Source of the DNA: Bacteroidota bacterium
GTDB taxonomy: Bacteria; Bacteroidota; Bacteroidia; J057
DNA length: 64,000 nucleotides
Assembly (NCBI GenBank): GCA_020438265.1
Contig: JAGQVA010000001.1
Location: 1,741-65,740, forward strand
Direction of reading: 5' to 3'
The notes below the pieces were generated by a model. The model saw only the letters and a program-made list of their open reading frames with translations, searched no databases and was not told where the DNA came from. Below are positions 15,988-60,400 of this stretch, in pieces (the first letter of the stretch is position 1; every line of letters starts with the position of its first letter). The position numbers and the translations under genes were made by a program.

Positions 15988-16003
15988 TTACCGTTCATCA
16001 TTT

Positions 16004-16075: not shown

Positions 16076-16126
16076 GTGATTTTTTTGTTTATAGATTACT
16101 TGACTCTAATGAATAAATGTAATTCC

Positions 16127-16274
16127 GGGATTCAGGAGGCCCCAGATCGCTTCCGCGTCTGGGGTGACAAAGCATGCGCTTTTTGGATACACGCCGAACA
16201 TTTCGGCGTGTTTTTAACAGCTATTGGCTGTCACCCCGGACGACAGGAGGAGATCCGGGGCCTCCTGAGATCCC
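16127..16274. repeat. Nested three-tier inverted repeat
   Basis: Outer tier: GGGATTCAGGAGGCCCCAGATC / GATCCGGGGCCTCCTGAGATCCC. Middle tier: CGTCTGGGGTGACA / TGTCACCCCGGACG. Inner tier: ACACGCCGAA / TTCGGCGTGT. It also contains a GCTATTGGC word from the heptamer family. Confidence 0.8.
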
Positions 16275-16319
16275 AAAAGGGTAAACTCATTTCAAATATA
16301 ACTCCAAACACGACTCTAT

Positions 16320-18362: not shown

Positions 18363-18475
18363 AGCTAAACATTTTCGGATTTAGTCGGTATCCACAAAAG
18401 CAGGATGGTTAGTTTTGGATGATGAAGCGTATCGAACTGCGTTTAATGTGAATTTTTAGAGAATTGAGAAAGGAA

Positions 18476-19126: not shown

Positions 19127-19354
19127 ACCAATTGGGTCTCAAAAAAGAATTTCAGGCATAAAAAATTCCACTGAATCCCGGATTTCAATGATTTTCACTT
19201 TGACCATTAATAAATTTCCTGCTAATTTCAGGTTAGGAAGGGATTTTTGTATATTCTGAAAGGAAATACATGTATCTCTTGCGAATAAGCGTTATTTATT
19301 ATAGAGGCTTTTCCCACAGTTTTGTAAATCTCTCAACTAACCTATTCTAATACT

Positions 19355-22510: not shown

Positions 22511-22534
22511 TATCTATCTGATATGAAATAAAGA

Positions 22535-22582
22535 GGAGACGGAAACGAAGGGAAAGCCTGAATAGCCGTCTCCATTATTTTT
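22535..22582 (+). terminator. Possible terminator hairpin
   Basis: GGAGACGG ...23 nt... CCGTCTCC followed by ATTATTTTT. The loop is large, so this is weak. Confidence 0.3.
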
Positions 22583-22628
22583 CCCACTCAACAGTTCCCA
22601 TTTACGAAGCGTTCAAATTTTACAGATT

Positions 22629-40778: not shown

Positions 40779-42824
40779 TTATTGATTTAATTCGCTAAGG
40801 CGATTTATAGCATCAAGATAGTTTTGATCCGCAGCTTTGGTCAGAGACTGAATAGCTGTTACGGAATCACGGGGATATTGTCTCAGCAACAAAATATGCC
40901 CATATAAATACTGACCCGCAGCCCAACCTTTTAAAGCAGAAATCTGAGCATATTTAAGCGCTTTTGTTTCATCTTTATCTACTCCCAGGCCTGAATGATA
41001 CATAAAGGCAAGCATATAAGCTCCCGGGCCATCGAGGTTAGGCATGGCATTTTCAAGGTTGTCTGCACTTGTTCTGTATTCGTATCCCGATTCACTGCTC
41101 CTGGCTTTGACAAACAATCTTTTACCTGTAGCGAGGTATTTCTCCAGTTCTGCTGCTTTTTCAGGGCTTTGTGTCGGTTGAGTCAAACCTGTTCTGCGAG
41201 TAGCCTCAGGCTGAGAGGCTGTCTCGGTTTTTGTTTCATTCAGAGATCTGGTTTTTGTTGTTGTCGTGTTGTCTGTATTCGCTTCCCTTTTGTTTGTATT
41301 ATCAGTATTTTGGGCTATTTGGTTCTCTGTTGGAGAGGTAGTGCTTTCTGACTTTTTTGGATCTTCATTTTCTGTTGCCAACGTCGTTTTTTCTCCCTCC
41401 GTCTTTTCTTCCATAGCTTTACTCAGCAGTTCGGTACATTCATTTTTTCTGGTTTGAGCCCGATCAAACTGTTCTTTATCTGCGAGTGTTATTTCAGGGC
41501 TTTCCAGAATCTTAAAGGCTTTATTATATAAATTTACTGCGAGGTTACAATCCTGACTTTCTCCTTCATACATCTGATCTCCCAGGTGAATATAGGCAGT
41601 TGCGATGCGATCCTGAGGGATTTCCGGTAGTTTATCTCCATCTCTTTCCTTGACTCTCTCTGCCCGGCGGTAGTTGCGAATTGCATCCCTGAAATTTCCA
41701 CGATCATAATAATCATTGCCTTTTTCATAATAAAATTCGGCAGTTTCAATCAGTAGTTCGATAGGTTCGTCTTCATCAAATGACTGATCTCTTCTTGCAA
41801 TAGTCTCTGTTTTTCTTTTATTGGCAATTTCCTTTTTTTGTTGATCATCTGTTGCTACGAATGCGCTATCGAATTGGGAGATAGCAAGTCGATATTTTTT
41901 CATCTCAAGGTTTTGATCCCCTCTGGCCATGAGGTTATCATAAAGACTTGGGCGGGTAGCTGTCCACCATGCAAATGCAATCAAACACAAAATGATGAGC
42001 ACAAAAGCGCCATAAACCAGGTTTTTCAACATTTTTGGCCCACGGTCATCATCTGTATCCTCTTCAGAATCGTCAGCTTCGTTGATATTGGGATTTATCG
42101 TTCCTGCGGTTGCAGCCCCTCCAGTAGGAGAACCGACATTCTTAATTTGGATAAGATAACAACTGTAATTATCCTGGGTGAAACTTTGACTAAGGTTGTG
42201 GATTTCATTAACCAGTAGTTTCGGTTCCGGATTTTGATCATTAATAAAAATTGTTTCCAGTGTATTCTGATCCACTTGTTCGAGGATGCCATCCGTTGCA
42301 AGAAAGAAATAATCTGCCGGGCGAATGGTATCAACCGGAATTGCATGCATATTCAGATTCGCAGGAGTTTCGCTTCCCCGGATCAGAATATCGTTATTAC
42401 CGTGATAGGATTTTAAGGATTTGGTTACACTTTCGTAATGGAATATATAACTGTTTCCAACCCAGGCGAGAGTAACCTGATTTTCTCCAAAATGTACCAA
42501 AGAAAGAGTTGTTGCCATTTCCGAACTCTCAGGATGAGCTTCTTTATATGCTGAAATGGCTTGTTCTGAGGTAGAAAGCGCTTTTTTGAGATAATCCAGA
42601 TTAATATTTCCTGAAGGGGGAGTGCTGGCAAAAAATTTTGCAAAACTAAGAGCTACTAATTTTGAGGCAACTTCCCCTGCATTAGGCCCTCCTTCTCCAT
42701 CTGCAATAATAAATAGTTTTTCTTCTACGTTGGCTTGTCCCTGAAGAGGAAAAATAAAATCCTCATTCACTTCCTTCCCACCCGCTTCGTGCAAGGCTAC
42801 TGGTTGTTTGATGCTTATTTTCAT
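40779..42824 (-). CDS. PP2C-like phosphatase domain / TM helix / TPR / low-complexity T,N,E-rich linker / Sel1-repeat protein
   Basis: 681 aa. N-terminal PPM-like motifs (NEDFIF, LFIIADGEGG, VGNSYIFHY, FFLATDGILE). TM helix LVYGAFVLIILCLIAFAWW. TPR-like segment (YYEKGNDYYDRGNFRDAIRNYRRA). C-terminal Sel1-like AYMLAFMYHSGLGVDKDETKALKY. Confidence 0.7.
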   Translation of the reverse strand: MKISIKQPVALHEAGGKEVNEDFIFPLQGQANVEEKLFIIADGEGGPNAGEVASKLVALSFAKFFASTPPSGNINLDYLKKALSTSEQAISAYKEAHPESSEMATTLSLVHFGENQVTLAWVGNSYIFHYESVTKSLKSYHGNNDILIRGSETPANLNMHAIPVDTIRPADYFFLATDGILEQVDQNTLETIFINDQNPEPKLLVNEIHNLSQSFTQDNYSCYLIQIKNVGSPTGGAATAGTINPNINEADDSEEDTDDDRGPKMLKNLVYGAFVLIILCLIAFAWWTATRPSLYDNLMARGDQNLEMKKYRLAISQFDSAFVATDDQQKKEIANKRKTETIARRDQSFDEDEPIELLIETAEFYYEKGNDYYDRGNFRDAIRNYRRAERVKERDGDKLPEIPQDRIATAYIHLGDQMYEGESQDCNLAVNLYNKAFKILESPEITLADKEQFDRAQTRKNECTELLSKAMEEKTEGEKTTLATENEDPKKSESTTSPTENQIAQNTDNTNKREANTDNTTTTKTRSLNETKTETASQPEATRRTGLTQPTQSPEKAAELEKYLATGKRLFVKARSSESGYEYRTSADNLENAMPNLDGPGAYMLAFMYHSGLGVDKDETKALKYAQISALKGWAAGQYLYGHILLLRQYPRDSVTAIQSLTKAADQNYLDAINRLSELNQ

Positions 42825-42910
42825 GCCTAAATATAGTTCTAAAACCTAAATATTCATCAATTACATGAGAATTTCAAAGATTTTAGGAAGAATTTGGGAT
42901 TTAGCCATGA

Positions 42911-42989
42911 GCTTTTGACTATTGGCTTTTAGCCTTTGACCTTTGGGCTGGATTCATTTGCCAATAGCCAAAAGCTAACAGCCAATAGC
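42911..42989. repeat. Second copy of the heptamer-built palindromic element
   Basis: Right arm is CCAATAG CCAAAAG CTAACAG CCAATAG. Left arm is ACTATTGGCTTTTAGCCTTTGAC. It shares words with 15898-15987 and ends 5 nt from the stop codon of the 63-aa ORF. Confidence 0.8.
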
Positions 42990-42994
42990 ACTGC

Positions 42995-43186
42995 TTAAGG
43001 AAGATCTGGAATAGATTTGATTTTGTTGCGAAAAAAGGTAACTGCCTGGCTGGTTGCCAGGTGGTTTTTCAGGTTGGGAAACTCATTCAGAATAAGCTGA
43101 ACTTCCGTTTCGTTTAGGGCTCTTCTTTTTCCATTAAAATTGTTGTGGATTGCCCACATCCCTGCGTTTTTTCTTATATAGTACAT
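42995..43186 (-). CDS. Small hypothetical protein (63 aa)
   Basis: ATG-initiated ORF in an otherwise ORF-free AT-rich region. No motif recognised. Confidence 0.35.
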   Translation of the reverse strand: MYYIRKNAGMWAIHNNFNGKRRALNETEVQLILNEFPNLKNHLATSQAVTFFRNKIKSIPDLP

Positions 43187-43725
43187 GCCTTAATTAAATT
43201 ATCAAACCAATAAACGGCATTCCGAAAAAAATGTATATACGTTCAATCTACTATTTCTTACCTGTCTATCTCTATAACTCTGAACGAATGGTAATACTTT
43301 CGGGATGAACGGTTATTTTCCGATTCATTTTATTCTTATCAAAATCAACGCCAGTTTTTTCCATTTCAAGGATTCGTAATTTTAATAGCAAGAATTGTTT
43401 TTAAGTTAAACATTTGATTAGTAAATGTTTATATTCTTTTAAGATAATTTATGAATCATGGTTTATTCCCAGGATTAATAATCTATTGATAAAACTAACT
43501 TTGTGGATTTTATGCAAATGATATAGATTCAGGGTGAGAGGATGATGTAAGATTTTATTGCAAAAGATACGATTTTGTCATTTTTGCCGGTTGTAAGCAA
43601 TGAAAACGTCAGCCTGAATTTCCCGATTTGATTTTGCCGTTTTTGTAATAATTATTAAAGGTTTTTGTCTGTTTTGTGTTAAATGTAGATGCAACCTGCG
43701 TGCTTTTTTTCCCGTTATTAATAGT

Positions 43726-44112
43726 ATGGATTATAAAATGAGACGAAAACTTGTAGATTTAGCCAGAATAAAAGGCGCAAAAATTTCTTATCAGGCACTC
43801 AGCGACGAATTCCAGCTTCAACTAAATATGAAGACCAAAAAGGACAGATTGCTTATTGCCAGTATGTTGCAGGAAATCTCTTCGTTTGAATATGAAAGTG
43901 GAAGGCCTCTGCTAAGTTCTCTGGTGCTTACCAAAGGAAAAAGAGGAAAACAAACCGACGAATTTTATAAGTATTGTGAAGAATTGGGATTGGGAGACTG
44001 GCAGGATTTAAAGTCAGACCCTGATTTTGAAGCCAAATTGCGGAAGGCTTGTTACGATTACTGGCGGGATGATTCCAATTACAAGTCTTACAAGTATGTC
44101 CATGACAACTGA
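43726..44112 (+). CDS. Hypothetical protein (128 aa)
   Basis: ATG-initiated ORF with balanced, charged, globular-looking composition. No motif recognised. Confidence 0.5.
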   Translation: MDYKMRRKLVDLARIKGAKISYQALSDEFQLQLNMKTKKDRLLIASMLQEISSFEYESGRPLLSSLVLTKGKRGKQTDEFYKYCEELGLGDWQDLKSDPDFEAKLRKACYDYWRDDSNYKSYKYVHDN

Positions 44113-44507
44113 CTGACTATAAACAGATGATTACCAATTAAAATACGATTGTTTCAGGATCAATTTCAGAGACAACTCAATATAAATAGCGAATTTGACG
44201 AATCGGTATAGATGCAAATCTTCACCGATTTTCTTTTTATATTCAAATGTTTTTCAGGTAATATCCTCTATTTCCTTTCGGAAAAGGCATAGGATTTGAT
44301 TGGTGATAGGTCAATCAGGTTAAGGGAATATAAATATTTTGGCTTGAGCAATTATTTAAAAATGGGGAGAATGCTTATCCCGTCATCATTCTTACAATTG
44401 GTGATCTAATTTTTACAGTTAAAGTATTTATTGTATATTTTATGTTAAGTCAATATTAACTTGCCTGAGGTTTGCTGAGAATAAATTATCTTTTAGGAAT
44501 TGAATGA

Positions 44508-47500
44508 ATGGTTAGATCAAAATCCCCCGAAAAAGGGGAAAAAAACTACGAAGATTTAATATCTATACCAGAGCCCTGCCGACGAGAAAAAATAACCATG
44601 CGTGTATTAATCACCATTGGTTTGATCGAACTTTTAATTTTTTCTATATGGTTTTTCGATCCCAGCCATATAGGATATTTACCCCTTTACATACTTCTAA
44701 GTATTAGCATTGGTTTTAGGTTTCTTAAAACGCTGCATGAATGGTACCACTACGGTGGAATTAGTGTGCCTCCCCCAAAGGAAATTACCCGTGAATGGTC
44801 AGTAGACATGTTAACGACGGCCTGTCCAGGAGAACCCATAGACATGATCCGGAAGACACTGGAGGCAATGGTTAAGGTTGAATACCCCCATACGAATTAT
44901 TTATGTGATGAAGGAAATGATCCGGTTCTTAAAAAAATCTGTGAAGATTTGGGGGTTATTCATGTGTATCGTGGAACCAATAAAACCAATGCAAAGGCTG
45001 GAAATATCAATTATGCGCTAGACAATATCGCAACCGGAGAGATTAGTGTCATTCTTGACCCTGACCATATTCCTCATCCTCTTTTCCTCCATGAAGTCTT
45101 ACCTTATTTTGATGAGGAAAAGGTAGGGTTTGTCCAGTGTATTCAGGCATATCATAACCGCAGGGAGAGTATGGTATCTCGTGGTGCCTCCGAGCAGACT
45201 TACCATTTTTATGGCCCAATGATGATGTCAATGAATTCTTATGGGACAGTACAGGCAATTGGGGCCAATTGTGCCTTCAGACGTGCTGCTCTGGATTCAA
45301 TTGGTGGACATGCACCAGGGCTTTCAGAAGATATGCATACTTCTATGCTCCTCCATTCAAAGGGGTGGGAGTCCGTCTATGTACCTGTCGCTTTGACAAG
45401 AGGAGAAGTCCCTGGTACAATGGCTTCTTACTACAAGCAACAATTAAAATGGTCCCGGGGATCACTGGAATTATTGTTTTTTGTAATCCCCAGGATATTT
45501 AAATCCCTGACCTGGAGACAAAGAATTCATTATTTGAGTATTCCGCTGCATTTTATGTTCGGACTCGTTGTCCTGATGGATTTACTGATTCCTATTTTCG
45601 CTTTATTCCTGGCGGAATCTCCTATTATCGTTAATCTTTTTGACCTTCTTTTATATGCGACTCCCCTGATCATAACCACATTATTAATCCGGCAATATGC
45701 TCAAAACTGGGTATTGGAGCAGCAGGAACGAGGGTTTCACATGATTGGAGGAATATTACTAACAGGTACATGGTGGGTCCATGTAGTGGGATTTGTATGT
45801 ACCCTTTTGCGAATCAATATCCCCTATATTCCTACTCCTAAACAGGATAAAGCTCAAAACGCGTGGAGCCTGTCTATTCCAAATATATTGGCGGTGGTCA
45901 TCTCTTTAGCGGCAATATTATATGGATTGAGCTATGACTGGAGCCCATATAGTGTTATGATGGCCGGGTTTGCGATGACCAATATGATGATTCTTGGTTT
46001 CACTGTGATGATGGGCCAACAAAAATTATTGCATCGTATCTCACGGTTTATCCGTGCCCGTGGCAAATTTATGCATTGGTTAAGGGATGGTTTTTATAAC
46101 TTCAAACATCGGGGGATCTTTAGTCCTCTGCGGAATGTTGCTGTAATCGGTATTACGCTATTCATCATCATTGCGGGAAGTTATGCCTGGAAAAACCGCT
46201 ACCGTGGGTTAAAACTGGCCGAGCTCAAACCACAGATCGAAAAACCTTCAGAAGGATTTTATTTGGGAGTGCCTTTAAGTGAAAAAAGAAAAAGTCAGCC
46301 TTATAAGGCCAATCGTGCAGACTTATTAATGTCCACTGTAAAATGGCAGGATACCCTGGCTTTGAATCAGACAATCGATTTAATGCAAAGATTGGCAATT
46401 GCCGATTCCAGAAGTCAGGTATTGATCAATTGGCTTCCGGATACCAACAGAGTAGAGAAGAATCCTTTTGAAGCAATAGCTTCCGGAGAATACGATAAGT
46501 ATTTGAATGAAGTGGCCAGAAGTTTTCAACATTTTGATCAAACGGTATTTGTCAATTTTGCTCCGGAAGTAGGAAATCCGGAAAAACCTTACGCGTTGCC
46601 GTCGGGTGAATATACCTTTGCGTATCAAAACGCCTGGAAACACGTTTTCCATACCTTTGCGGATTTAGGAGTAGCCAATGTCGTTTGGGTCTGGACTCCT
46701 TATTCGATAGAAAGCACAAATTTCTTTTACCCGGGATCTGAATATGTAGACTGGGTAGGAATTCCTTACAGAGGAGAATTCCATAAAGATGAATTCGCTC
46801 GGGCTTATGGTGCATTCAGTGATATTTTTTCCCCTTTTCCTACCCTGGTTTTTGACCAGTCAGAGGGAAAATGTCAGGATCTTCATGCGTGTTCGCGTGA
46901 GTTGGGAGTATTAATGAGAGATTCGTTCCCGGAAATTCAGGGTTGGGTATTGGATAATGAATTGGAAAATGGAGACTTTGCAGCGCAATGGCAGGCACTT
47001 ACCCGTGAAATGAATAAGTTTCGCGCTTTTTCTCCACCCCCTTTTATACCGGAAAAAAAGAAGAATCCCTCATTATTAGCCAATGGAGCAATAATTGATC
47101 CTTCCCTGATTAGCCCTGTACATCAAAAAATGCCAAAACCTGGTCAGGTTATTTTAGAAAAGGAGGGAAATGAATATTATCTTCAGGTTGATGGTAAACC
47201 TTTCTATATTAAAGGAATTACCTATAATCCCGGGCATGATTGGCGAGATGCTTATTCTCCATTAGTCAGAAAACAATTGGAAACAGACTTCAAACGTATG
47301 GCTGATATGGGAGCAAATGTGGTGCGAAGATATAAACCCACTTTTTATGACTATAATATTCTGAATGTAGCCAGAGAGAATGATTTAAAGGTATTGTATG
47401 GATTTTATTTTGATCCCGAAATCGACTACTATGCTGATACTGCCAGGGTCAACGATACCAAAAAGCGGGTGCTGCATCGAATTGAGTCTATGCGGGGAGA

Positions 47501-48395
47501 AACTACCATCCTCGCATGGGGATTGGGCAACGAAACCTGGGGTTTATTAAAACACCACTTCAGACCTAGTTATCTGCCAAGGGTAAGAAAGGCTTATTTG
47601 AATATGTTGGAGGATTTGGCAAAGGATATTAAAAAAATTGATCCTGACCACCTGATTTTCTCTGCCCTGGAGCATAGTGAAGACCTTCAGGTAGGATTGA
47701 CTTCCTTTCATAGCAAGGTACCTGGTCTGGACTTCATTAGTATTAATAGTTATTATACTCCCCGAATCAGTACATTAGATTCTATTGCCAGCCGTTATTA
47801 TCCCAATCAGCCTTACCTGGTATCAGAATTTGGACCAGCGGGATATTGGGCACCTGAATACACAGTTACTGACGGAAGAGAACAACTGGTAGAATCTTCA
47901 TCCTATCAGAAAGCCAGAGAATATATTGACAACTGGCAAAATTATATTTCCCCTTATGAAGGCAAAAACCTGGGGGGAGTGGCTTTTTGCTGGCGGGATC
48001 GATTCGAAGGTACTGCAACCTGGTTTGGAATTACAGACATAAATAACCGAATTAAACCGGGGTATTATGCCCTAAAAGAAGCCTGGACGGGTGAAAAAGT
48101 ACCTTTCCCTATCGCAGATGCTTATATTATTCCACCGTGGGAAGTCTCTAATTATCGCCTTAGTAAGGTGGTAACCAAGGATTATAAACGCCGGGATTTA
48201 CATTACGAATGGTATATTTGCAGGGAGACGATGTTGGAACGGGTGGGTAGTGTAAACTTACAGGACCGGGGACGAGCTGCACTGATTGAGCTACCCGGGG
48301 AAGACTCAGATTACCGGATTTATGTTCACATTAGTGATGAAGAAGGAAATGTCGTCACTGCTTCTACCCCGATTGTTCCCAGAAAAAATAATTAA
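44508..48395 (+). CDS. Processive GT2 (cellulose-synthase-like) membrane glycan synthase fused to a GH26-like module and a clan GH-A TIM-barrel-like module
   Basis: 1295 aa. GT2 motifs DEGND, ILDPDH, SEDMHTS and QQLKWSRG, between 2 N-terminal and about 6 C-terminal hydrophobic helices. GH26-like motifs FAPEVGN, YQNAWKHVFHTFADLGVANVVWVWTPY and FYPGSEYVDWVGI. GH-A-like motifs ILAWGLGNETW and PYLVSEFGPAGYW. Confidence 0.8.
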   Translation: MVRSKSPEKGEKNYEDLISIPEPCRREKITMRVLITIGLIELLIFSIWFFDPSHIGYLPLYILLSISIGFRFLKTLHEWYHYGGISVPPPKEITREWSVDMLTTACPGEPIDMIRKTLEAMVKVEYPHTNYLCDEGNDPVLKKICEDLGVIHVYRGTNKTNAKAGNINYALDNIATGEISVILDPDHIPHPLFLHEVLPYFDEEKVGFVQCIQAYHNRRESMVSRGASEQTYHFYGPMMMSMNSYGTVQAIGANCAFRRAALDSIGGHAPGLSEDMHTSMLLHSKGWESVYVPVALTRGEVPGTMASYYKQQLKWSRGSLELLFFVIPRIFKSLTWRQRIHYLSIPLHFMFGLVVLMDLLIPIFALFLAESPIIVNLFDLLLYATPLIITTLLIRQYAQNWVLEQQERGFHMIGGILLTGTWWVHVVGFVCTLLRINIPYIPTPKQDKAQNAWSLSIPNILAVVISLAAILYGLSYDWSPYSVMMAGFAMTNMMILGFTVMMGQQKLLHRISRFIRARGKFMHWLRDGFYNFKHRGIFSPLRNVAVIGITLFIIIAGSYAWKNRYRGLKLAELKPQIEKPSEGFYLGVPLSEKRKSQPYKANRADLLMSTVKWQDTLALNQTIDLMQRLAIADSRSQVLINWLPDTNRVEKNPFEAIASGEYDKYLNEVARSFQHFDQTVFVNFAPEVGNPEKPYALPSGEYTFAYQNAWKHVFHTFADLGVANVVWVWTPYSIESTNFFYPGSEYVDWVGIPYRGEFHKDEFARAYGAFSDIFSPFPTLVFDQSEGKCQDLHACSRELGVLMRDSFPEIQGWVLDNELENGDFAAQWQALTREMNKFRAFSPPPFIPEKKKNPSLLANGAIIDPSLISPVHQKMPKPGQVILEKEGNEYYLQVDGKPFYIKGITYNPGHDWRDAYSPLVRKQLETDFKRMADMGANVVRRYKPTFYDYNILNVARENDLKVLYGFYFDPEIDYYADTARVNDTKKRVLHRIESMRGETTILAWGLGNETWGLLKHHFRPSYLPRVRKAYLNMLEDLAKDIKKIDPDHLIFSALEHSEDLQVGLTSFHSKVPGLDFISINSYYTPRISTLDSIASRYYPNQPYLVSEFGPAGYWAPEYTVTDGREQLVESSSYQKAREYIDNWQNYISPYEGKNLGGVAFCWRDRFEGTATWFGITDINNRIKPGYYALKEAWTGEKVPFPIADAYIIPPWEVSNYRLSKVVTKDYKRRDLHYEWYICRETMLERVGSVNLQDRGRAALIELPGEDSDYRIYVHISDEEGNVVTASTPIVPRKNN

Positions 48396-48410
48396 GCCAG
48401 AAGACGAATT

Positions 48411-49760
48411 ATGATGAATCCAAAAAAGTTGATTTTCGGTTTGCTTAAAATTAGCGCTGGAATCCTTTTGGTCTTACTGCTTGCTTTAATTGTTATCTAT
48501 GTCATCAATCCTGATTATCAGATCCATTCTCCTGAGAATGCCAGGGTGCGACTGGTGAAAACGGATCAGGGTTATCAACTCCTTAAAGATGGAGAGCCTT
48601 TTTATATTCATGGAGCCGCTGGTGATGGTTCGTTGGAAAGGTTGAAAAACCTGGGAGGAAATTCGATTCGCCTGTATCGTTATTATCATATTGATTCTCT
48701 GGTTCAGGTAGCAGACACACTGGGAATTTCGGTCATGGTAGATCTGGATCTTCCACCGATGAGAACAGGATTTGACTATGATGATCCAGAAAAGGTTGAT
48801 AGTTTGATTGCTGAGTTAAAAGAAACAGTGAACAAGCTGAAAGATCATCCTTCTATTTTAATCTGGAATATCGGGAATGAATTGAACCTGTTCTATGGAG
48901 AAGACTTTGAGGTTTGGAAAGTGATCAATTCCATTGCTGAGATGATTCATGAAACAGATCCTGATCATCCTACCAGTACGGCTATCCCTATGGTTTGGCA
49001 GGACATGATTCTGGCCAGGTGGTTTTGCCCCAGTATCGATATTCTGAATATAAATTCTTTCCGCTTTACCTTAACTCCTTCTTCAACAATCTATACCAGT
49101 CTATATGGTTGGCAGGGGCCTTATGTGTTTGGAGAAATGGGCCCCATGGGGACCTGGCAAGCACCGGCAAACCAGTGGAATGTGCCCATCGAGTGGGATG
49201 ATACCCGAAAGGCTGCTCACTTGACTTATATTTACGATACGCTGATCAAGCCCGATCCCAAAAGCCTGGGAGCTTATGCTTTCTTCTGGGGGCAGAAACA
49301 GGAACGTACTCATACCTGGTATAGCCTTTTCTCAGAGTATGGCGAGAAAACACCAGTCGCGGATGAATTATCAAGAATCTGGACCGGAGAATACAAACAG
49401 AATCGCTCACCACAAGTAGAAGGTATTCTTCTGAATGGCAAAGTTGCCAAGGAGAATATCCACCTGAATTCCGGGGAAATCTATGAAGCAGAAGCGTATG
49501 TCAAAGATCCCGAAGATGATTCTATCATGCTGGAATGGGCTGTGTTTAAAGAAGGAGACTACCGGTCTACATTTGGTGGAGACAAAGAGTGGCGCCCGCA
49601 GTCCTTCCCGGAACTGATTCTGGAAGCTCATGACAAAACTGTGCGTTTTCAGGCCCCAGAATATCCCGGAGACTATAGATTGTTTATTTATGCCCGGGAT
49701 AAACATCACAACCGGGGGAGCTTGAATGTGCCGTTTTTTGTAGTGTTGGAGCAGTATTAA
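48411..49760 (+). CDS. Membrane-anchored clan GH-A-like glycoside hydrolase with C-terminal beta-sandwich-like domain
   Basis: 449 aa. N-terminal anchor LKISAGILLVLLLALIVIYVI. ILIWNIGNELN and PYVFGEMGPMGTW motifs. Collinear motif-by-motif with residues ~870-1190 of the upstream synthase fusion. Confidence 0.75.
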   Translation: MMNPKKLIFGLLKISAGILLVLLLALIVIYVINPDYQIHSPENARVRLVKTDQGYQLLKDGEPFYIHGAAGDGSLERLKNLGGNSIRLYRYYHIDSLVQVADTLGISVMVDLDLPPMRTGFDYDDPEKVDSLIAELKETVNKLKDHPSILIWNIGNELNLFYGEDFEVWKVINSIAEMIHETDPDHPTSTAIPMVWQDMILARWFCPSIDILNINSFRFTLTPSSTIYTSLYGWQGPYVFGEMGPMGTWQAPANQWNVPIEWDDTRKAAHLTYIYDTLIKPDPKSLGAYAFFWGQKQERTHTWYSLFSEYGEKTPVADELSRIWTGEYKQNRSPQVEGILLNGKVAKENIHLNSGEIYEAEAYVKDPEDDSIMLEWAVFKEGDYRSTFGGDKEWRPQSFPELILEAHDKTVRFQAPEYPGDYRLFIYARDKHHNRGSLNVPFFVVLEQY

Positions 49761-49826
49761 GAAACATAAACGCTTCTTTTATTTTCTACAATCAGAACCG
49801 TTTAAGAAATAGTCGAAAATATAGAG

Positions 49827-49870
49827 AACTCCACTTGAAAGGTAATAATCCTGTTCAAGTGGAGTTTTTT
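49827..49870 (+). terminator. Rho-independent terminator of the 44508-49760 gene pair
   Basis: AACTCCACTTGAA ...14 nt... TTCAAGTGGAGTT, a 13-bp stem running into TTTTTT. Confidence 0.8.
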
Positions 49871-50023
49871 GTTATCCTCATTTCAATTCTCTGTGAAATT
49901 TTCCTACGGTACATTTTTAGTTACACTTATTACCTCCCGCAGATTGAACAGATCCCACGGATCTAACCTCTTGGCAATTGAATTTCTGTGATATCTTTTG
50001 GGCTTCCTCCAACGCCCCAAAAC

Positions 50024-50057
50024 AAAAAAAGCTGGCCTTTTAAGTAAGACCAGCTTT
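50024..50057 (-). terminator. Rho-independent terminator of the M23 peptidase gene
   Basis: On the minus strand: AAAGCTGG ...loop... CCAGCTTT followed by TTTTTTT, 22 nt after the stop. Confidence 0.65.
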
Positions 50058-50078
50058 GCAAAGTTTTGTACTGTAAAT

Positions 50079-50672
50079 TTAGAAGAAGTCTTCAGGATCT
50101 AAATGTACACCATCTCTGATGACTTCATAATGTAAGTGAGGATTTGTACTACGACCTGTGTTTCCTACAAAGCCTATAGTATCTCCCTCCTCAACGATTT
50201 GTCCCAATTTTACCACGATTCCGGAAAGGTGAGCGTATAGAGTAACGTACTCTTCGTCGTGCTCCAGTTTTATATGTTTTCCGTAGGAGCTATCGTCTGA
50301 ATCGTTTACCAGCTTTCCGACCCGACCGGTTGCCGTAGCTAATACCGGCGTTCCGTTTTTGGCTGGAAAATCAACCCCTGTGTGCATTTTATCTACACCT
50401 AAAATGGGGTGTTTTCTCATTCCAAAAGTGCTGCTTAACGGAATTCCTCTCGGAATCGGGCGACTTGTGGGTACAATTTCAATTTCAAAAGGATCTATCG
50501 TCCTTAGATGCGCCTGCTGAATCTTCATTGATTTGACAGGCTCTTGTACTCCAGCAAGGGTAATATTGGTCTTCGTGGCTGTTGAGAAATTAGAGTCGAG
50601 ATTCTCAGTTTCAGTAAACATGAAGAATGAACCGATGACTAGCACCGTGACACTCATCAAGTAATTTTTCAT
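50079..50672 (-). CDS. M23 family metallopeptidase
   Basis: HTGVDFPA, YGKHIKLEH and GNTGRSTNPHLHYEV motifs. Start placed at the ATG at 50672 (MKNYLMSVTVLVIGSFF anchor); the longest ORF begins at TTG 50693. Confidence 0.88.
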   Translation of the reverse strand: MKNYLMSVTVLVIGSFFMFTETENLDSNFSTATKTNITLAGVQEPVKSMKIQQAHLRTIDPFEIEIVPTSRPIPRGIPLSSTFGMRKHPILGVDKMHTGVDFPAKNGTPVLATATGRVGKLVNDSDDSSYGKHIKLEHDEEYVTLYAHLSGIVVKLGQIVEEGDTIGFVGNTGRSTNPHLHYEVIRDGVHLDPEDFF

Positions 50673-55345: not shown

Positions 55346-58300
55346 ATGGATCTACAAAAAAACTACGCTTTTATTTTTGTTATCTTGGTTTTCTTTGCTT
55401 TTCATGCATCGAAATCACGTGCTTCTCATATTATGGGAGGAGACATTACCTACCAATGTTTGGCAAATAATCAGTATCTGGTTACTCTCAAAGTCTTTCG
55501 GGATTGTGGAGGAGTGCAATTAGGTAATAGCCAGATTTTGAAATATTCTTCTGCAACTTGTGGTGTAAATGTGACTACTCCATTGCTTCAGCAGGGAGTA
55601 AGTTTGGATATAACTCCTGTTTGTCCTGGTCAGGTAAGCAGTTGTAGTGGAGGATTTGGCATTCCCGGGATTCAGGAGTTTACTTATAAAGGAACCATTA
55701 ACTTACCACCTGGTTGTGGAAATGACTGGGTGTTAAGCTGGAGTTCCTGCTGTCGTAATAATGCTATCACTACTCTTCTTAGTCCTGGTAGTAATGGAAC
55801 CTATTTTCAGGCAACTTTGGACAATACAGTAAGTCCTTGTAATAATTCTCCTGTTTTTAATAATAACCCAACCCCTGTTATCTGCATCAATCAACCCATT
55901 ATTTATAATCATGGTGTTTCGGACCCGGATGGAGATAATCTTGTTTTTTCAATTGTTTCCTGCCAGTCAACAGCTTTGGTTCCGGTTAGCTACGGGCCTG
56001 GTTATAATGCCCTTAGCCCTTTAATGACGACAGGAGGAATTAGTATAAACCCAGCTACCGGAGAGATGAATTTTACCCCTTCTCAATTGCAGATTGGAGT
56101 GATTTGTGTGAAGGTGGAAGAATTTCGAAACGGAGTAAAGGTGGGAGAAACAGTCAGGGATATGGAGTTTAAGGTTATTTCTTGTAGCAATCAGGCTCCT
56201 GTTATTTCGGGAATAAATAATACCAGTCAATTTCAAATCAATACCTGTACTGGCTCAAGCTTATGTTTTACAATGAATGCAACTGATCCGGATGGGGGGC
56301 AGGTTAGTTTGAACTGGAATCAGGGCATTGCTGGTGCTTCCTTTTCAGTGAATGGTAACGGGAGCCTGAACCCTGTGGGAACTTTTTGCTGGACACCAAG
56401 CCCCGGAGATACAGGTACTTTCTTTTTTACGGTTATTGCCCAGGACGATAATTGCCCCTGGGTTGCGAGTAATATCTATGCTTTTGAGATTATTGTCGGA
56501 CAAGGTTCCCATACGCTCACTGTTCAGGGAGATAGCTCTATTTGTTATGGAGACACGGTTCCGCTTAGCGCAGTTGTCGTGGGTGCCAGCAGTTTTTCAT
56601 GGTCCCCTGCCGGAAGCCTGAGTGATCCCAATTCGCTGACTCCTGTGGCATATCCTGCAGTAAGTACGGTTTATACATTCACGGCGAGTTTTCCTGATGG
56701 TTGTGTCATTTCCAATTTCGCACTGGTTTCTCTGGATGCAGGCCCCTCAGTCTCTATATCTCCCCATAATCCTTATATCTGCCCGGGGAATCCCATTACG
56801 CTAACCGCGCTTTCTTGTACAGCAAACGCCTACTTATGGAGTAATGGAAGCACGGATTCTTTTATAACTGTAAACCCCATTGTTAATACAACCTATGGTA
56901 TCGAGGTGGTGGATGATAAAAACTGTATTGCTTTTGATTCAGTGACAGTTATAGCAGGAGGCCTTGGTGCAGGGTATTGCAATACAATTTATGTAACTCC
57001 GGGAGGAACGGGAACCGGTACACGCAATGATCCGACAAATCTCAGTAAAGCCCTATGGCTCGCTGCCTGCAAAGAAGCTATAATTAAACTGGATACAGGA
57101 GTTTATATATGCGACACAGCGATTACGGGAATTACAAGCAATATCACTCTGGAGGGTGGTTTTATACGGTTAAACAACTGGCAGAAAACCAGCAAAGCAG
57201 GAGCTACCAGAATATTCAGAACAACAAATAACCCCGAAGGTATTTTTCCCAATCAGCGCATTGTTGCAGCTTATATTTCAGGTGAAGATAGTTTCCGTTT
57301 GCAGGATATTACCTTCGAGACGGCTGATGCCAATGTTTTTGGCATGTCAGTATATGGACTGCACCTGACCGCCTGCCAGAATTACCAGTTTGTTCGTACG
57401 CAGGTAATCGCAGGAAATGGTGGAGACGGGGAAGACGGAACAGATGGTTTGGATGGCGCAGATGGACTGGATGGTTTGGATGGAAATGATGGTAATCAGG
57501 ATAATGCTGCTCTTGCGGGCGCAGGCGCAAATGGAGGAAAAGGCGGTGGAAATATTACCAATGGTTTGGGAGGTCAGCCAACTATTTGTTGTAACCCAGG
57601 AGTAAATGGCGCTGACGGTACGACAACCACCAATCCCCGACATGGTGGCGGTGGTGGTGGTGGCGGTTCGGGAGGACAGGGAAATTTTAATGGAGGCCAG
57701 GGAGGAAAAGGCGGAGGAGTAAATGGCGTATTCGGAACAACCAATGGAGGTGGTGGCGGGATAGCCAGTGGATGTAATACAAATCTGGACTGTGGAGATC
57801 CAGAGTCCGGAGAAGATGGCGAAGATGGATCTGACGGAAATAACGGTGTTGATGGTGCTGATGGAGGCTCAGGCAGTCATGTAAGTGGTTTTTGGACTCA
57901 TGGAACTCCAGGGACTGATGGCAGTGAAGGAGAAGGTGGGCAAGGAGGAGCTGGTGGTGGTGGCGGTGCCGGGGAAGGCGGTGCTGCCTGTATTGATGGA
58001 GGCGGTTCCGGTGGTGCTGGCGGCGGCGGCGGTGGCGAAGGAGGATTCGGGGGAATGACTGGCGGTCCTGGTGGTTCTTCTTATGCTGTATATTTGTATA
58101 ATAATGGTCCCAACACCTCTTTCATCGATTGCGAATTAGTTGTTCTTGGAGCAGGTGCCGGAGGAGCAGGAGGCAAAGGAGGGAAAGGCGGAAGTGATGG
58201 AAAAGGGGGAAATGCCAGTGAATATGTTGGCTGTAGTACAGGAGGATGTGCCTCAAATTACGATAATGGAGACGGTGAGGTCGGTTGCTCAGGCAAGGGT

Positions 58301-60400
58301 GGCGATGGAGGCAAAGGAGGTGATGGCGGTGACGGGGGAAAAGGAGCTGATGGGGAAGCGATTGCTTTGTACCAGAATGGCGGACAAGCTCCTTTGCAAA
58401 GCATGATTAATTTTAACCTGAATAGCCAGGACATCATTTTTATGGATAATGGAGGTTGTGTGAACGCTCCTCTTAACTTTGAAGGCCCAAACACTATATG
58501 GGATTTGGGATTGGATGCAAGCCCGCAAAATCCTTCTGGTACAATTGTCAGTACTCAGTACAGCTCTGGTGGGCGTAAGGATATTATCCATGGACTATTT
58601 ACCTATACCGGGTTTGCTAATATTAACCCTGAAAATAGTGTACAGGCTCAGATAACCACCTCTGCTCCGATGACAGGAAACTATTATGTAATCTGTCAGG
58701 GAGAGGCCGTCAATTTTGCTGCTGCGAACCCCGGGATTAATTATATTTTTCACTGGAATATGGATGGAGGGAGTTCACCGAATGTATATGACGGAGAAAA
58801 TCTGGAAGTGCTTAATGGAATCACTTTTAACACCGCAGATACGTTCTATATTCAGTTGAGTTATGAAACAGACTGTTGTGGCCAATCAATTCCTGACTCA
58901 ATTCCTTTGATTGTTTTACCCGGCCCCAATTTGCTGGTAACAGGAAATCCTGTGTATTGCCAGGGTGGGGCCTCCTCATTATTGAGCGTCAGCGGAGGAT
59001 ATAATTATCTCTGGAGCCCCGCAAATGGATTGAGTAGTACGACTGATTCCACAGTTCTCGCTAATCCTGGAATAAGTACAACTTATCTTGTCAGCGCATC
59101 AAATCCTTCAGGCGGCTGCCCTGCTACGGCTTCCATTCATATGGATGTCATTGATGTGCAGGTCCAAAATACAATCATTGACGCCAGTTGTGGAAATGAT
59201 GGTGCTTCGACAATTACTGCTTCAGGAGGCCAGGGAAGTTATACCTATTCTTGGAATTTTGGCGGAAATTCAAATAGTTACGCCAATCTTTCTCCCGGAA
59301 ATTATCAGGTTTGGGTAACTGATTCGGGGAGTGGATGTAAGGATTCCCTTGCCTTTAGTATTCAGGCGCAAAATAATAGTCTGTCTGCATATCTGAGCCA
59401 AAACACTTCTCCGAGTTGTTATAATTCCAATGATGGTAGTGCCCAGATTAGTGTCAGTGGAAATCAGGGGCCATACCTGGATATTTGGACAGATAGTATA
59501 GGTAATATGGTAAATAATGCAAGTCTTGGAGCAGGCATGTATTCTGTACAGATTATTGATCCCGTAGCAGGGTGTACAACAAATACAAGTTTTTTCCTTC
59601 CGCAACCAGAACCGATGGCATTGACACTGGATTCCCTGGATTATGATTGTGGTTTGGTTGGGGGAGGAATAGCGATTGTACACGCAAGTGGAGGAACGGG
59701 CCCTTTTACCTATACCTGGAATACCTCTCCCGCCCAATATGGAGATACTGCCAACTCACTTACGCCTGGATCATATCTGGTTACAGCTGTTGATCAGAAA
59801 GGTTGTCAGGAAACCATGTCTGTAACAATTCCTTGTGTATTGGATGCGCTCAATCTGGGGTTTCATGGGGAATCGGTTTCAAACCATATCAAATTATGGT
59901 GGCAGTTGGATCTGACAGAGGCAGATTATACAAAAGTGGAAATTGAAAAAATAGATCATATTTTAGGAAAGTTTGTATCTGTTTCCAGTCGTCTGCCAGA
60001 TGATTATGAATCAGAGAATGGACGGTGGTTTTTTATTGATGATCATGTCTTTCCCGGAAACAGGTATGATTACCGGTTGAGATTGACGGATGAAAGTGGG
60101 GCCAGCCAGTATTCAGATATTATTGAAGTGTTTTATTCCAAAGACAAGGCGATTCCAAAGATCCGTTTTGCTTATGACACACAAAATAAAGCTTTGCAGG
60201 TTTGGAATGAAGGAATGATGGGTGATCCGATTGTGCTTGAAATGGTTAATTTAATTGGGCAAACCATTTATAAAACAGCCCTTTCGGAAGCTACATATCA
60301 AAAAATACCTTTAAAACCTGTCAGCAAAGGGATGTATATAATAAGGGTTTCTTTTGGTGGGCGATTGTTTGTGGATTCAAGGATATTAATTGGTGATTAA
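55346..60400 (+). CDS. Giant multidomain cell-surface protein: Cys-rich head, cadherin/Ig-like modules, beta-helix-like region with glycine-rich collagen-like insert, SprB repeats, T9SS type A CTD
   Basis: 1684 aa. Signal peptide. SHIMGGDITYQCL...RDCGG head. DPDGDNLVFS and DPDGGQVS motifs. Three SprB-type repeats (C.NDG...ASGG.G.YTYSWN). C-terminal ...GMYIIRVSFGG.... Confidence 0.85.
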   Translation: MDLQKNYAFIFVILVFFAFHASKSRASHIMGGDITYQCLANNQYLVTLKVFRDCGGVQLGNSQILKYSSATCGVNVTTPLLQQGVSLDITPVCPGQVSSCSGGFGIPGIQEFTYKGTINLPPGCGNDWVLSWSSCCRNNAITTLLSPGSNGTYFQATLDNTVSPCNNSPVFNNNPTPVICINQPIIYNHGVSDPDGDNLVFSIVSCQSTALVPVSYGPGYNALSPLMTTGGISINPATGEMNFTPSQLQIGVICVKVEEFRNGVKVGETVRDMEFKVISCSNQAPVISGINNTSQFQINTCTGSSLCFTMNATDPDGGQVSLNWNQGIAGASFSVNGNGSLNPVGTFCWTPSPGDTGTFFFTVIAQDDNCPWVASNIYAFEIIVGQGSHTLTVQGDSSICYGDTVPLSAVVVGASSFSWSPAGSLSDPNSLTPVAYPAVSTVYTFTASFPDGCVISNFALVSLDAGPSVSISPHNPYICPGNPITLTALSCTANAYLWSNGSTDSFITVNPIVNTTYGIEVVDDKNCIAFDSVTVIAGGLGAGYCNTIYVTPGGTGTGTRNDPTNLSKALWLAACKEAIIKLDTGVYICDTAITGITSNITLEGGFIRLNNWQKTSKAGATRIFRTTNNPEGIFPNQRIVAAYISGEDSFRLQDITFETADANVFGMSVYGLHLTACQNYQFVRTQVIAGNGGDGEDGTDGLDGADGLDGLDGNDGNQDNAALAGAGANGGKGGGNITNGLGGQPTICCNPGVNGADGTTTTNPRHGGGGGGGGSGGQGNFNGGQGGKGGGVNGVFGTTNGGGGGIASGCNTNLDCGDPESGEDGEDGSDGNNGVDGADGGSGSHVSGFWTHGTPGTDGSEGEGGQGGAGGGGGAGEGGAACIDGGGSGGAGGGGGGEGGFGGMTGGPGGSSYAVYLYNNGPNTSFIDCELVVLGAGAGGAGGKGGKGGSDGKGGNASEYVGCSTGGCASNYDNGDGEVGCSGKGGDGGKGGDGGDGGKGADGEAIALYQNGGQAPLQSMINFNLNSQDIIFMDNGGCVNAPLNFEGPNTIWDLGLDASPQNPSGTIVSTQYSSGGRKDIIHGLFTYTGFANINPENSVQAQITTSAPMTGNYYVICQGEAVNFAAANPGINYIFHWNMDGGSSPNVYDGENLEVLNGITFNTADTFYIQLSYETDCCGQSIPDSIPLIVLPGPNLLVTGNPVYCQGGASSLLSVSGGYNYLWSPANGLSSTTDSTVLANPGISTTYLVSASNPSGGCPATASIHMDVIDVQVQNTIIDASCGNDGASTITASGGQGSYTYSWNFGGNSNSYANLSPGNYQVWVTDSGSGCKDSLAFSIQAQNNSLSAYLSQNTSPSCYNSNDGSAQISVSGNQGPYLDIWTDSIGNMVNNASLGAGMYSVQIIDPVAGCTTNTSFFLPQPEPMALTLDSLDYDCGLVGGGIAIVHASGGTGPFTYTWNTSPAQYGDTANSLTPGSYLVTAVDQKGCQETMSVTIPCVLDALNLGFHGESVSNHIKLWWQLDLTEADYTKVEIEKIDHILGKFVSVSSRLPDDYESENGRWFFIDDHVFPGNRYDYRLRLTDESGASQYSDIIEVFYSKDKAIPKIRFAYDTQNKALQVWNEGMMGDPIVLEMVNLIGQTIYKTALSEATYQKIPLKPVSKGMYIIRVSFGGRLFVDSRILIGD

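Follow-up and report, generated by a model that had tools for sequence, protein, structure and literature searches.

A widespread two-gene cassette of Bacteroidota joins a BcsA-like synthase to GH26-like and GH158-like modules and may make a β-1,3-containing glucan

NdvB of Pseudomonas and Bradyrhizobium is a cyclic β-1,3-glucan synthase that unites a GH17 domain and a GT2 domain in one polypeptide, and a role in cutting and transglycosylating the growing chain has been proposed for its GH17 barrel (PMC10237404). Cgs is a multi-domain cyclic β-1,2-glucan synthase (PMC10901819). Among glycoside hydrolases, the characterised GH158 members are β-1,3-glucanases in which an Ig-like domain is an accessory part of the architecture, as in BuGH158, and Lic26A is a lichenase within GH26, a family in which mannanases are the majority. 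To our knowledge, only catabolic roles are known for GH158, Bacteroidota have been studied almost entirely as β-glucan degraders, and no β-glucan synthase from this phylum has been characterised so far; our literature search found none either.

In the window, the 64,000-nucleotide stretch of Bacteroidota DNA analysed here, a 1295-codon frame at 44508..48395 (+ strand, as are all features below) encodes a GT2 synthase, a GH26-like module (module 1) and a GH158-like module (module 2). The frame was re-read without a break, as the preliminary description had stated. The public annotation begins at an alternative start, M31 (nt 44598), and gives 1265 aa, and the record is 100% identical. Pfam, PDB and Foldseek matches lie along the same ORF and bear out the proposal that the synthase shares one chain with two clan GH-A modules. 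A homologue search returned at least 120 homologues of 1233-1376 aa from independent sources, mostly with 94-100% query coverage and 41-72% identity. Residue counts refer either to 120 relatives from this search or to 73 full-length fusions from a set of 83 loci, which comprises 80 loci from a genome scan, two contigs of retrieved homologues and the window. No paper characterising the fusion was found in a literature search, and the two-gene cassette described below is widespread and uncharacterised.

By sequence and model, a processive GT2 synthase of the BcsA kind, with no PilZ domain, makes up residues 1-564, in agreement with the preliminary description. GT2 families matched residues 112-365 in Pfam (best E 8e-27) with no PilZ hit in the fusion protein, and BcsA matched residues 98-510 in a PDB sequence search (5e-35). 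Motifs, profile and PDB matches place the GT2 (GT-A) catalytic domain, predicted to be cytosolic, at residues 95-335 (44790..45512), where the mean pairwise identity in the family is 0.75. All four motifs quoted for this part were found, namely DEGND (133-137), ILDPDH (182-187), SEDMHTS (273-279) and QQLKWSRG (311-318), and they supply D134, D184xD186, S273-E-D275 and Q311-Q-L-K314-W315. All 73 of 73 relatives share D134, D184/D186, E274/D275 and Q311/W315. The last motif, however, is QxxKW rather than the QxxRW first assigned; K314 is equally invariant (73/73).

The BcsA-like channel region (residues 336-505; 45513..46022) was delimited from the AF2 model, Foldseek and the alignment. It contains interface helices, four membrane crossings and a gating-loop equivalent, P-Y-I-P-T-P-K (439-445), whose YIPTPK aligned with the FxVTxK gating loop of BcsA. 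The AF2 model of residues 1-600 (pLDDT 86.9) matched BcsA 4p00 (Foldseek E 1.2e-24, TMq 0.69, 547 columns), and the predicted channel, interface helices and gating loop are those of processive membrane-integrated GT2 synthases. The alignment with BcsA also maps HAKAGN, DxD, TED and QxxRW. The closest solved relatives of the GT2 part are cellulose synthases, at ~22-27% identity. No sequence feature is known to us from which the linkage formed by a GT2 synthase can be read.

Hydropathy and AF2 models gave the predicted membrane topology. The chain starts with a charged tail, predicted to lie in the cytosol, followed by a transmembrane hairpin, TM1-TM2 (residues 29-73; 44592..44726; AF2 helices 25-49 and 58-82), which was delimited by hydropathy and K/R counts. 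The GT loop follows, and then five crossings. The last is an extra helix, TM7, which together with a K/R-rich linker spans 46023..46199 (hydropathy core 537-555; AF2 helix 544-564); this segment is poorly conserved (0.21 identity). The K/R-rich loop quoted earlier was found at 509-536, and loop 502-536, with 9 K/R versus 1 D/E, is predicted to be cytosolic. Because an odd number of crossings follows the cytosolic GT domain and loop 502-536 follows the positive-inside rule, the C-terminal modules are predicted to face the periplasm, with TM7 carrying the chain across, as had been suggested.

Module 1 (residues ~585-835; 46260..47012) is a GH26-like (β/α)8 barrel of the Lic26A type according to Pfam, Foldseek and alignment. 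PF02156 (GH26) scored 30.9 bits against a cutoff of 20.2, with coverage of residues 705-757 only, and the first GH26 structural match was the C. thermocellum lichenase Lic26A (E 1.5e-12, TMt 0.67), so the original assignment of the fold stands. FAPEVGN (684-690), WVWTPY (727-732) and FYPGSEYVDWVGI (740-752) were all present. The catalytic set is incomplete in the window protein: the acid/base E687 (nt 46566-46568) is kept, but Pro686 stands where the signature His is expected, and Asp783 (nt 46854-46856), at the end of β-7, replaces the canonical nucleophile Glu. Both catalytic Glu occur in only 28 of the 120 relatives, and the mean identity of the module is 0.32. Module 1 is thus probably not a canonical hydrolase here. 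Since it lacks the nucleophile and the His, the two hydrolase activities that had been put forward reduce to one likely activity in the window protein.

An intact module 1, that of Chitinophaga pinensis, matched Lic26A at 5e-17 across almost its entire length, and a β-1,3-xylanase came next (3e-8), followed weakly by one uncharacterised GH26 and a GH26 xylanase. No mannanase-named chain was among these matches. Module 1 also matches Bacillus mannanases, though weakly.

Module 2 had been described as a clan GH-A TIM barrel followed by a ~100-aa tail. The barrel and its catalytic motifs, GLGNETW (1005-1011) and VSEFGPAGYW (1105-1114), were confirmed, and matches to BuGH158 (6PAL) refine the assignment to GH158-like; the tail, in contrast, is an Ig-like domain that belongs to the GH158 architecture. 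The (β/α)8 barrel covers residues 881-1195 (47148..48092; BuGH158 alignment, Foldseek) and the C-terminal Ig-like β-sandwich residues 1196-1290 (48093..48377; BuGH158 alignment, all-β in the AF2 model). In PDB sequence searches 6PAL matched fusion residues 881-1289 at 1.4e-24, and module 2 alone at 6.6e-26 (module residues 12-420 against chain residues 4-403), so that barrel and Ig-like domain align end to end. Foldseek likewise returned 6PAL (E 3e-29, TMt 0.80), then GH158(Pro), a GH2 β-glucuronidase and GH157, a laminari-oligosaccharide-binding family; weak matches to GH2 β-mannosidases were also seen.

All three catalytic residues of module 2 are intact. N1008-E1009, the predicted acid/base (E1009, nt 47532-47534), aligned with N136-E137 of BuGH158, and E1107, the predicted nucleophile (nt 47826-47828), lies in SEFGP, aligned with E220. 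They are kept in 113/120, 115/120 and 109/120 relatives, respectively, and the barrel has a mean identity of 0.57. The presumed conservation of the putative catalytic Glu residues therefore holds for module 2 (109-115/120) but not for module 1 (28/120). This conservation of residues and barrel indicates selection on catalysis in the clade of the window protein, in which module 2 is likely the catalytically competent module. Its identity is only 21-24% to characterised GH158 enzymes and 24% to the adjacent standalone GH158, so its specificity may differ from theirs and it might be classed in CAZy as a distant subfamily.

The family comprises two clades, one with module 2 intact and the other with module 1 intact. 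In the latter, both module 1 catalytic Glu are present in 26/26 members, together with the RFAHE..NP and AEFG signature motifs. At least one module with a complete catalytic set is retained in 66 of the 73 full-length fusions. The fact that 7/73 have neither module intact suggests that fused catalysis is dispensable in some lineages. Module 2 is absent altogether in three loci.

A distance of 15 bp downstream of the fusion ORF starts a standalone canonical GH158 of 449 aa with an N-terminal signal-anchor (48411..49760), which is probably co-transcribed with the fusion. PDB matches (9.7e-72 to GH158(Pro), 1.4e-55 to BuGH158) and conservation identify it; the catalytic N156-E157 and E242 are kept without exception (68/68 orthologues), regardless of clade. 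Only two gene clusters are conserved among the 83 loci, the fusion (83 loci) and this ~440-aa GH158 (69 loci), which adjoins the fusion or sits within a few kb. An N-terminal hydrophobic or lipoprotein-type signal was found in 64 of the 69 partners. No BcsB- or BcsC-like neighbour and no conserved outer-membrane exporter was found across the 83 loci, and searches for a c-di-GMP element and for GH8 with the fusion gave none. The earlier reading that no BcsB-like or export partner lies nearby was thus right but had missed the GH158 next door; similarly, the hydrolase-like modules are indeed covalently coupled to the synthase, but a separate hydrolase is encoded as well. At some loci other genes were seen: a membrane Sulfatase-family transferase, of a broad kind that includes glucan-decorating enzymes, in 14 loci (directly downstream of the synthase in 13/14), and MBOAT acyltransferases in six.

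From domain identities, predicted fold and topology, residue conservation and gene linkage, we infer, with a probability of roughly 0.6, that the fusion and the next gene form a self-contained two-gene cassette that makes and processes a β-glucan, the product being likely β-1,3 or mixed β-1,3/1,4. The GT2 part (564 N-terminal residues) would polymerise glucose from UDP-glucose, the presumed donor, in the cytosol and thread the nascent chain through its own membrane channel. The seventh helix would take the polypeptide outside, so that the two clan GH-A modules are tethered in the periplasm beside the channel exit. There the GH158-like module (881-1290) may cut or transglycosylate the emerging chain, while the Lic26A-type GH26 module (585-835), having lost canonical residues, would probably have a binding or guiding role. 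The standalone GH158, anchored in the membrane, would be the constant partner for trimming, release or turnover. Because every hydrolase-type component belongs to a lineage active at β-1,3-linked glucose, the linkage is most likely that of a β-1,3-glucan or mixed β-1,3/1,4-glucan rather than cellulose.

Several other explanations were weighed. An origin of the long ORF from separate genes joined by an assembly error or frameshift can practically be dismissed. Two splits were seen, one dividing a relative (L081) into two ORFs and one in a partner gene (L059), and both look like local errors or pseudogenes. Nothing else in favour was found, and over 100 independent assemblies, isolate genomes among them, encode the complete fusion. 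Isolates among the 80 genome loci include Chitinophaga pinensis (a chromosome assembly), Neolewinella marina and Gelidibacter salicanalis, and an Adhaeribacter arboris homologue was recovered apart from that scan. Homologues carry all parts in one chain, which answers both whether the fusion is conserved and whether three separate genes were joined by a sequencing error. It is also unlikely that neither fused module is enzymatic here, both serving as a BcsB-like periplasmic guide or scaffold while the standalone GH158 cleaves. The degenerate module 1, the seven relatives without an intact module, the three loci without module 2 and the invariant catalytic residues of the standalone enzyme would fit such a role, but the retention of N1008, E1009 and E1107 in 109-115/120 relatives and the higher identity of the module 2 barrel (0.57 versus 0.32 for module 1) argue for an active module 2.

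As to the product, a cellulose (β-1,4-glucan) synthase, as publicly annotated, with the fused modules and GH158 in the role of BcsZ, is an improbable reading. The best solved and annotated GT2 relatives are BcsA proteins, and homologues are called 'cellulose synthase' in several sources. However, the NCBIfam CelA equivalog model (TIGR03030) gave 164 bits against a cutoff of 699, and NF008558 gave 128 against 992; PilZ, BcsB, BcsC and GH8 are all absent; the acceptor-contacting BcsA motifs QTPH and FFCGS are QCIQ and AIGAN here; and the associated modules all come from β-1,3-acting lineages (GH158, Lic26A-type GH26). The 'cellulose synthase' annotations of the fusion family are probably wrong. 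Still less credible is a non-glucan polymer such as β-mannan, β-1,3-xylan or a GlcNAc polymer. Such a polymer would suit a Pfam GH26 model in which mannanases predominate, and the weak mannanase and β-mannosidase matches point the same way, but the intact module 1 favours Lic26A without a mannanase-named chain among its matches, GH158 is by a wide margin a better match than GH2 for both module 2 and the partner gene, and the PgaC and NodC models score far below CelA.

For the β-1,3-containing glucan favoured here, the lack of a conserved outer-membrane exporter and of a c-di-GMP element makes a periplasmic fate possible. Tentatively, the cassette could be machinery, so far unrecognised, with which many Bacteroidota produce a periplasmic or envelope-associated β-1,3 (or β-1,3/1,4) glucan, and in which the tethered GH, instead of being a simple hydrolase, acts as a transglycosylase that sets chain length or that cyclises or branches the growing chain; it might then be a counterpart in function of the proteobacterial osmoregulated or cyclic periplasmic glucans. 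This idea is favoured by the missing exporter in 83 loci and by the Sulfatase-family transferase and MBOAT at some of them. If it is true, the clade switch of the active module represents two interchangeable solutions to one step. More generally, if a BcsA-like synthase and modules of the GH158 and Lic26A types are coupled in this conserved cassette, GH158 and GH26 would gain a biosynthetic role. It would be a natural case of synthesis and processing in one chain, with a different module inactivated in each clade, and would offer a compact two-gene system for defined β-1,3-containing gluco-oligosaccharides or polymers.

Several known systems can be compared with the fusion. The synthase part shares the GT-A fold, catalytic motifs, interface helices, channel and gating loop with BcsA, and in both systems a glucanase is genetically linked to the synthase (BcsZ, GH8, in the case of BcsA). 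Unlike BcsA/BcsB/BcsZ, it has no PilZ/c-di-GMP control, BcsB, BcsC or GH8, carries QxxKW for QxxRW, and its hydrolase-like modules are fused and come from β-1,3-active families. Module 2 resembles BuGH158 (6PAL) and GH158(Pro) (9ORO) in its TIM barrel with a C-terminal Ig-like domain, and the catalytic N-E after β-4 and E after β-7 align and are present in both module 2 and the downstream gene. The GH158 members studied in detail, BuGH158 for example, are catabolic enzymes of a polysaccharide-utilisation locus, whereas the GH158 copies here are fused to a synthase (21-24% identity) or membrane-anchored. Module 1 finds its best match, by structure as well as by sequence, in Lic26A (Clostridium thermocellum, 2BVD), but the His and nucleophile Glu of Lic26A are Pro686 and Asp783 in the window protein, and Lic26A is a secreted cellulosomal enzyme while module 1 is tethered to a membrane synthase. 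Cgs, too, is a membrane synthase that carries additional domains for processing what it makes, but it differs in processing chemistry and linkage (β-1,2). Its glycosyltransferase comes from a different family and its processing domains are cytoplasmic.

The nearest precedent for a synthase-GH fusion is NdvB. Both proteins have a cytosolic BcsA-like GT2, a periplasmic clan GH-A barrel of a β-1,3-glucan-active family, no PilZ and no dedicated outer-membrane exporter. The covalent coupling that the preliminary description set apart from known exopolysaccharide systems has precedents in NdvB (PMC10237404) and Cgs (PMC10901819). Pfam gave no GH17 hit in the fusion, which falls outside the NdvB type, and the resemblance is functional and architectural only. 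In NdvB, a protein of Proteobacteria, the GH17 is N-terminal with a signal peptide, whereas the Bacteroidota fusion bears Lic26A-type GH26 and GH158-like modules at the C-terminus behind an extra helix. Furthermore, the fusion, unlike NdvB, combines two modules subject to clade-specific inactivation with a separate GH158 gene (69/83 loci).

The fusion gene (window 44508-48395, forward strand) is a single open frame of 1295 codons without interruption. The preliminary description had read it as a GT2 synthase joined to two glycoside-hydrolase-like modules, and each peptide motif that it quoted was found in its place in this frame, except for the wording of QxxRW. A search of 5.8 billion proteins returned at least 120 homologues, 1233-1376 aa long; almost all of those listed showed 94-100% query coverage and 41-72% identity, and Adhaeribacter and Pontibacter isolates were among them. 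When one genome per species was scanned, 80 loci carrying a fusion homologue were obtained, nearly all labelled Bacteroidota and including isolates of Chitinophaga, Arcicella, Neolewinella, Gelidibacter, Algibacter, Maribacter, Robertkochia, Segetibacter and Nibrella. These homologues and loci indicate a conserved fusion and not an assembly artefact. Of the clusters in a 50%-identity library, 125 matched the two-module region (E ≤ 1e-30), and the long ones among them carried module 2 at the C-terminus, as in the fusion architecture. Public records name the family "glycosyltransferase" or "cellulose synthase", and our literature search (GH158, GT2, GH26, NdvB, Lic26A, Bacteroidetes periplasmic glucans), of incomplete coverage, found no paper on the fusion. 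We regard the family as genuine, widespread and uncharacterised, a variation on the theme of synthase-GH fusions.

Some individual records deviate. The public annotation of an identical protein (P0001) has 1265 aa, 30 residues fewer, consistent with a start at Met31 (44598 versus 44508). Homologues have 17-35 residues ahead of TM1, and these N-terminal lengths make the longer start at 44508 plausible. The synthase of Gelidibacter sediminis (L081:9224-12982) is broken into two ORFs of 385 and 866 aa, and the GH158 gene beside the synthase of an uncultured Gelidibacter (L059:7884-9211) is split; both are probably frameshifts or pseudogenes. A contig labelled "uncultured Akkermansia sp." (L026, CAZFCR010000069.1) carries a typical Bacteroidota-type cassette, and the label probably reflects faulty binning and not an occurrence beyond Bacteroidota.

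In the synthase part, residues 112-365 matched GT2 families of Pfam (best E 8e-27), with a Cellulose_synt match at residues 271-395, and BcsA matched residues 98-510 at 5e-35 in the PDB sequence search. The best NCBIfam matches were cellulose-synthase models, far under their equivalog cutoffs (164 vs 699 bits). The query was modelled by AF2 in two halves, residues 1-600 (pLDDT 86.9) and 560-1295 (pLDDT 87.3, pTM 0.89), and the N-terminal half could be superimposed on BcsA 4p00 (E 1.2e-24, TMq 0.69). The HMMER alignment mapped the BcsA motifs HAKAGN, DxD, TED (here SED) and QxxRW, as well as the gating loop FxVTxK (YIPTPK in the query), and the acceptor-side motifs QTPH and FFCGS were replaced by QCIQ and AIGAN. 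The motif cited earlier as QxxRW actually reads QQLKW (window 45438-45452, residues 311-315); Lys314 was invariant in 73/73 relatives, which marks the replacement of Arg by Lys as typical of the family rather than erroneous. A tblastn search of annotated plasmids with the GT2 part gave only BcsA-type matches, at ~25-27% identity, among the best rows listed, and no annotated curdlan synthase for comparison. By these methods the linkage could not be read from the GT2 sequence. From hydropathy and the model, the chain begins with a charged tail, predicted to be cytosolic, and continues through TM1-2, the cytosolic GT domain and five more crossings. The loop ahead of the last helix (residues 502-536) contains 9 K/R and 1 D/E. 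The number of crossings and this K/R-rich loop place the residues from ~565 onward in the periplasm by prediction, and the modules were thus predicted on the same side of the membrane as had been proposed originally, in agreement with hydropathy, the AF2 model and the loop charge.

Module 2 is GH158-like. Residues 881-1289 matched 6PAL (1.4e-24) and GH158(Pro) in the PDB sequence search. 6PAL is BuGH158, an endo-β-1,3-glucanase in which a TIM barrel is followed by an Ig-like domain at the C-terminus and the catalytic residues are N136/E137 and E220 (PMC7157763). The two aligned end to end including the Ig-like domain, with GLGNE(1009)TW on N136-E137 and VSE(1107)FGP on E220, and BuGH158 headed the fold search (E 3e-29, TMt 0.80), ahead of GH158(Pro), a GH2 β-glucuronidase and GH157. 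The TIM-barrel assignment of the preliminary description was thus borne out, whereas its separate tail of ~100 aa turned out to be the Ig-like domain of GH158. Among the 120 closest relatives listed, N1008, E1009 and E1107 were retained in 113, 115 and 109, respectively. In the query, the active module is probably module 2, judging from its residues.

A second GH158 protein had been overlooked in the first reading. The gene at 48411-49760 on the forward strand, 15 bp downstream of the fusion, encodes a canonical GH158 (GH158(Pro) 9.7e-72, BuGH158 1.4e-55) with an N-terminal signal-anchor. The testable features of GH158 were found in this partner and in module 2 alike. With an identity of only 24%, module 2 and the neighbouring GH158 do not go back to a recent duplication; their split is ancient.

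The GH26 assignment of module 1 held for the fold and not for the catalytic residues. The Pfam GH26 match exceeded the gathering score over residues 705-757 only. In the AF2 model, module 1 forms an eight-stranded barrel with E687 after strand 4 and D783 at the end of strand 7, and the first GH26 structure in the fold search was Lic26A (E 1.5e-12, TMt 0.67), a GH26 lichenase (PMC7157769). The intact module 1 of C. pinensis matched Lic26A along almost all of its length (5e-17), followed by a β-1,3-xylanase (3e-8) and, with weak E-values, one uncharacterised GH26 and a GH26 xylanase; no chain named mannanase was among its matches. In the query and its nearest relatives, A-H-E is changed to A-P-E and the nucleophile position is occupied by Asp. 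Of the 120 closest relatives listed, 36 had the acid/base Glu and 66 the nucleophile Glu, with the pair together in only 28. Module 1 of the query has a GH26 fold but not the complete set of catalytic residues, and it probably binds or guides the chain. In four loci (L044:13012-14769, L048:9714-11396, L053:13007-14701 and L073:14797-16512), the cassette adjoins a standalone protein of ~560-590 aa that carries a tandem pair of module-1-like (GH26-like) domains. The one in L044, the only one scanned, has HE and EFG motifs, yet showed no Pfam match at E ≤ 0.01.

Mean pairwise identity was highest in the GT2 core (0.75), intermediate in the module 2 barrel (0.57) and lowest in module 1 (0.32). Across the 73 full-length genome loci, the two modules show a reciprocal pattern: the catalytic set was intact in module 2 only in 35, in module 1 only in 26, in both in 5 and in neither in 7. 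In a neighbour-joining tree built on the GT2-TM region, this pattern is mostly one deep split, and parsimony required at least six state changes in module intactness. The Chitinophaga/Gelidibacter/Neolewinella clade has 26 members, all with the gene order GH158 then synthase. In 26/26 of them module 1 keeps RFAHE..NP and AEFG, and module 2 has lost its residues (NE to ND, NN or NT, the nucleophile often being lost too). The query's clade, with 47 members, kept module 2 and had several separate losses within module 1. A short form of ~900-917 aa with GT2 and module 1 only (L067:7980-10730, L070:7920-10622 and L071:7989-10718; e.g. Nibrella) has a GH158 gene immediately upstream on the opposite strand.

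For the neighbourhood, ORFs were called at 83 loci, namely the 80 of the genome scan, two homologue contigs and the window, and were scored by module HMMs built from the family alignment, and neighbours within ±8-10 kb were clustered. The only broadly conserved clusters were the fusion (83) and the ~440-aa GH158 (69/83, several of the remaining contigs ending early). Among the 73 full-length loci, the partner was directly upstream on the same strand in 26, directly downstream on the same strand in 18, downstream on the opposite strand, next to the fusion or up to a few kb off, in 16, upstream and divergent in 1, and not found within the available stretch in 12. Its catalytic N-E and E were invariant in 68/68 orthologues, and 64/69 partners had an N-terminal hydrophobic or lipoprotein-type signal. 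The clustering found no conserved exporter, TPR, porin, Wza, PilZ, GGDEF or BcsB-like gene, extending to all 83 loci what had been noticed near the fusion gene. An upstream PP2C-TPR/Sel1 gene was common to the window and its closest relative only. These two also share an ORF of the same size and position upstream of the synthase (window 43726-44112, 128 aa, without Pfam match; L001:9307-9693).

Between 42700 and 44700, the search for riboswitches (c-di-GMP or other) gave only sub-threshold chance matches, and predicted sigma-70 promoters and terminators in 42800-50200 were no more frequent than in shuffled sequence, for a host whose promoter type may differ. A ~65-nt palindrome (42921-42986) in the long AT-rich intergenic region 42825-43725 gave sub-threshold matches to one microRNA hairpin model with both of its strands, and is probably an inverted repeat only. 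At 13548-26039 and 55346-60400 lie genes for large surface proteins that feature type IX secretion C-terminal domains (Por_Secre_tail, CHU_C) as well as PKD and SprB repeats; the host is a gliding-type Bacteroidota bacterium.

Some lineages have additional neighbours. A Sulfatase-family membrane protein of ~810 aa is encoded in 14 loci (L005:11864-14287, PF00884, 3.8e-43; also L007, L011, L015, L017, L021, L026, L028, L035, L036, L038, L044, L054 and L065), directly downstream of the synthase in 13 and further downstream on the opposite strand in L044; the window has no such gene. This superfamily includes OpgB, BcsG and LtaS, which transfer phospho-substituents to envelope polymers, and by analogy the gene would suggest a decorated glucan in these lineages. 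Six loci have MBOAT-family O-acyltransferase genes no more than a few kb from the synthase (L009:11969-13408, directly downstream; L018, L020, L027, L069 and L076), which suggests that the product is acylated in some lineages.

We propose that the BcsA-like processive synthase would extrude its product into the periplasm, where it would be met by the covalently tethered glucanase-type modules and also by the separately encoded, exported GH158. Each hydrolase-type component points to β-1,3-containing glucans, and a β-1,3 or mixed β-1,3/1,4 glucan is favoured over cellulose as the putative product. Retaining clan GH-A enzymes can perform hydrolysis or transglycosylation. The family offers a clear, testable prediction on the identity of the product and on which module is active in which clade. 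Given the lack of a conserved exporter, the product may stay in the periplasm, as has been proposed for the pseudomonad GH17-GT2 NdvB proteins (PMC10237404). NdvB is analogous to the fusion in architecture but does not share its family membership; the fusion has other GH families, a reversed domain order, two modules and an obligatory partner gene. The GT2 part would work like BcsA, yet it falls outside the BcsA family, with its score under the cutoff and neither PilZ nor BcsB.
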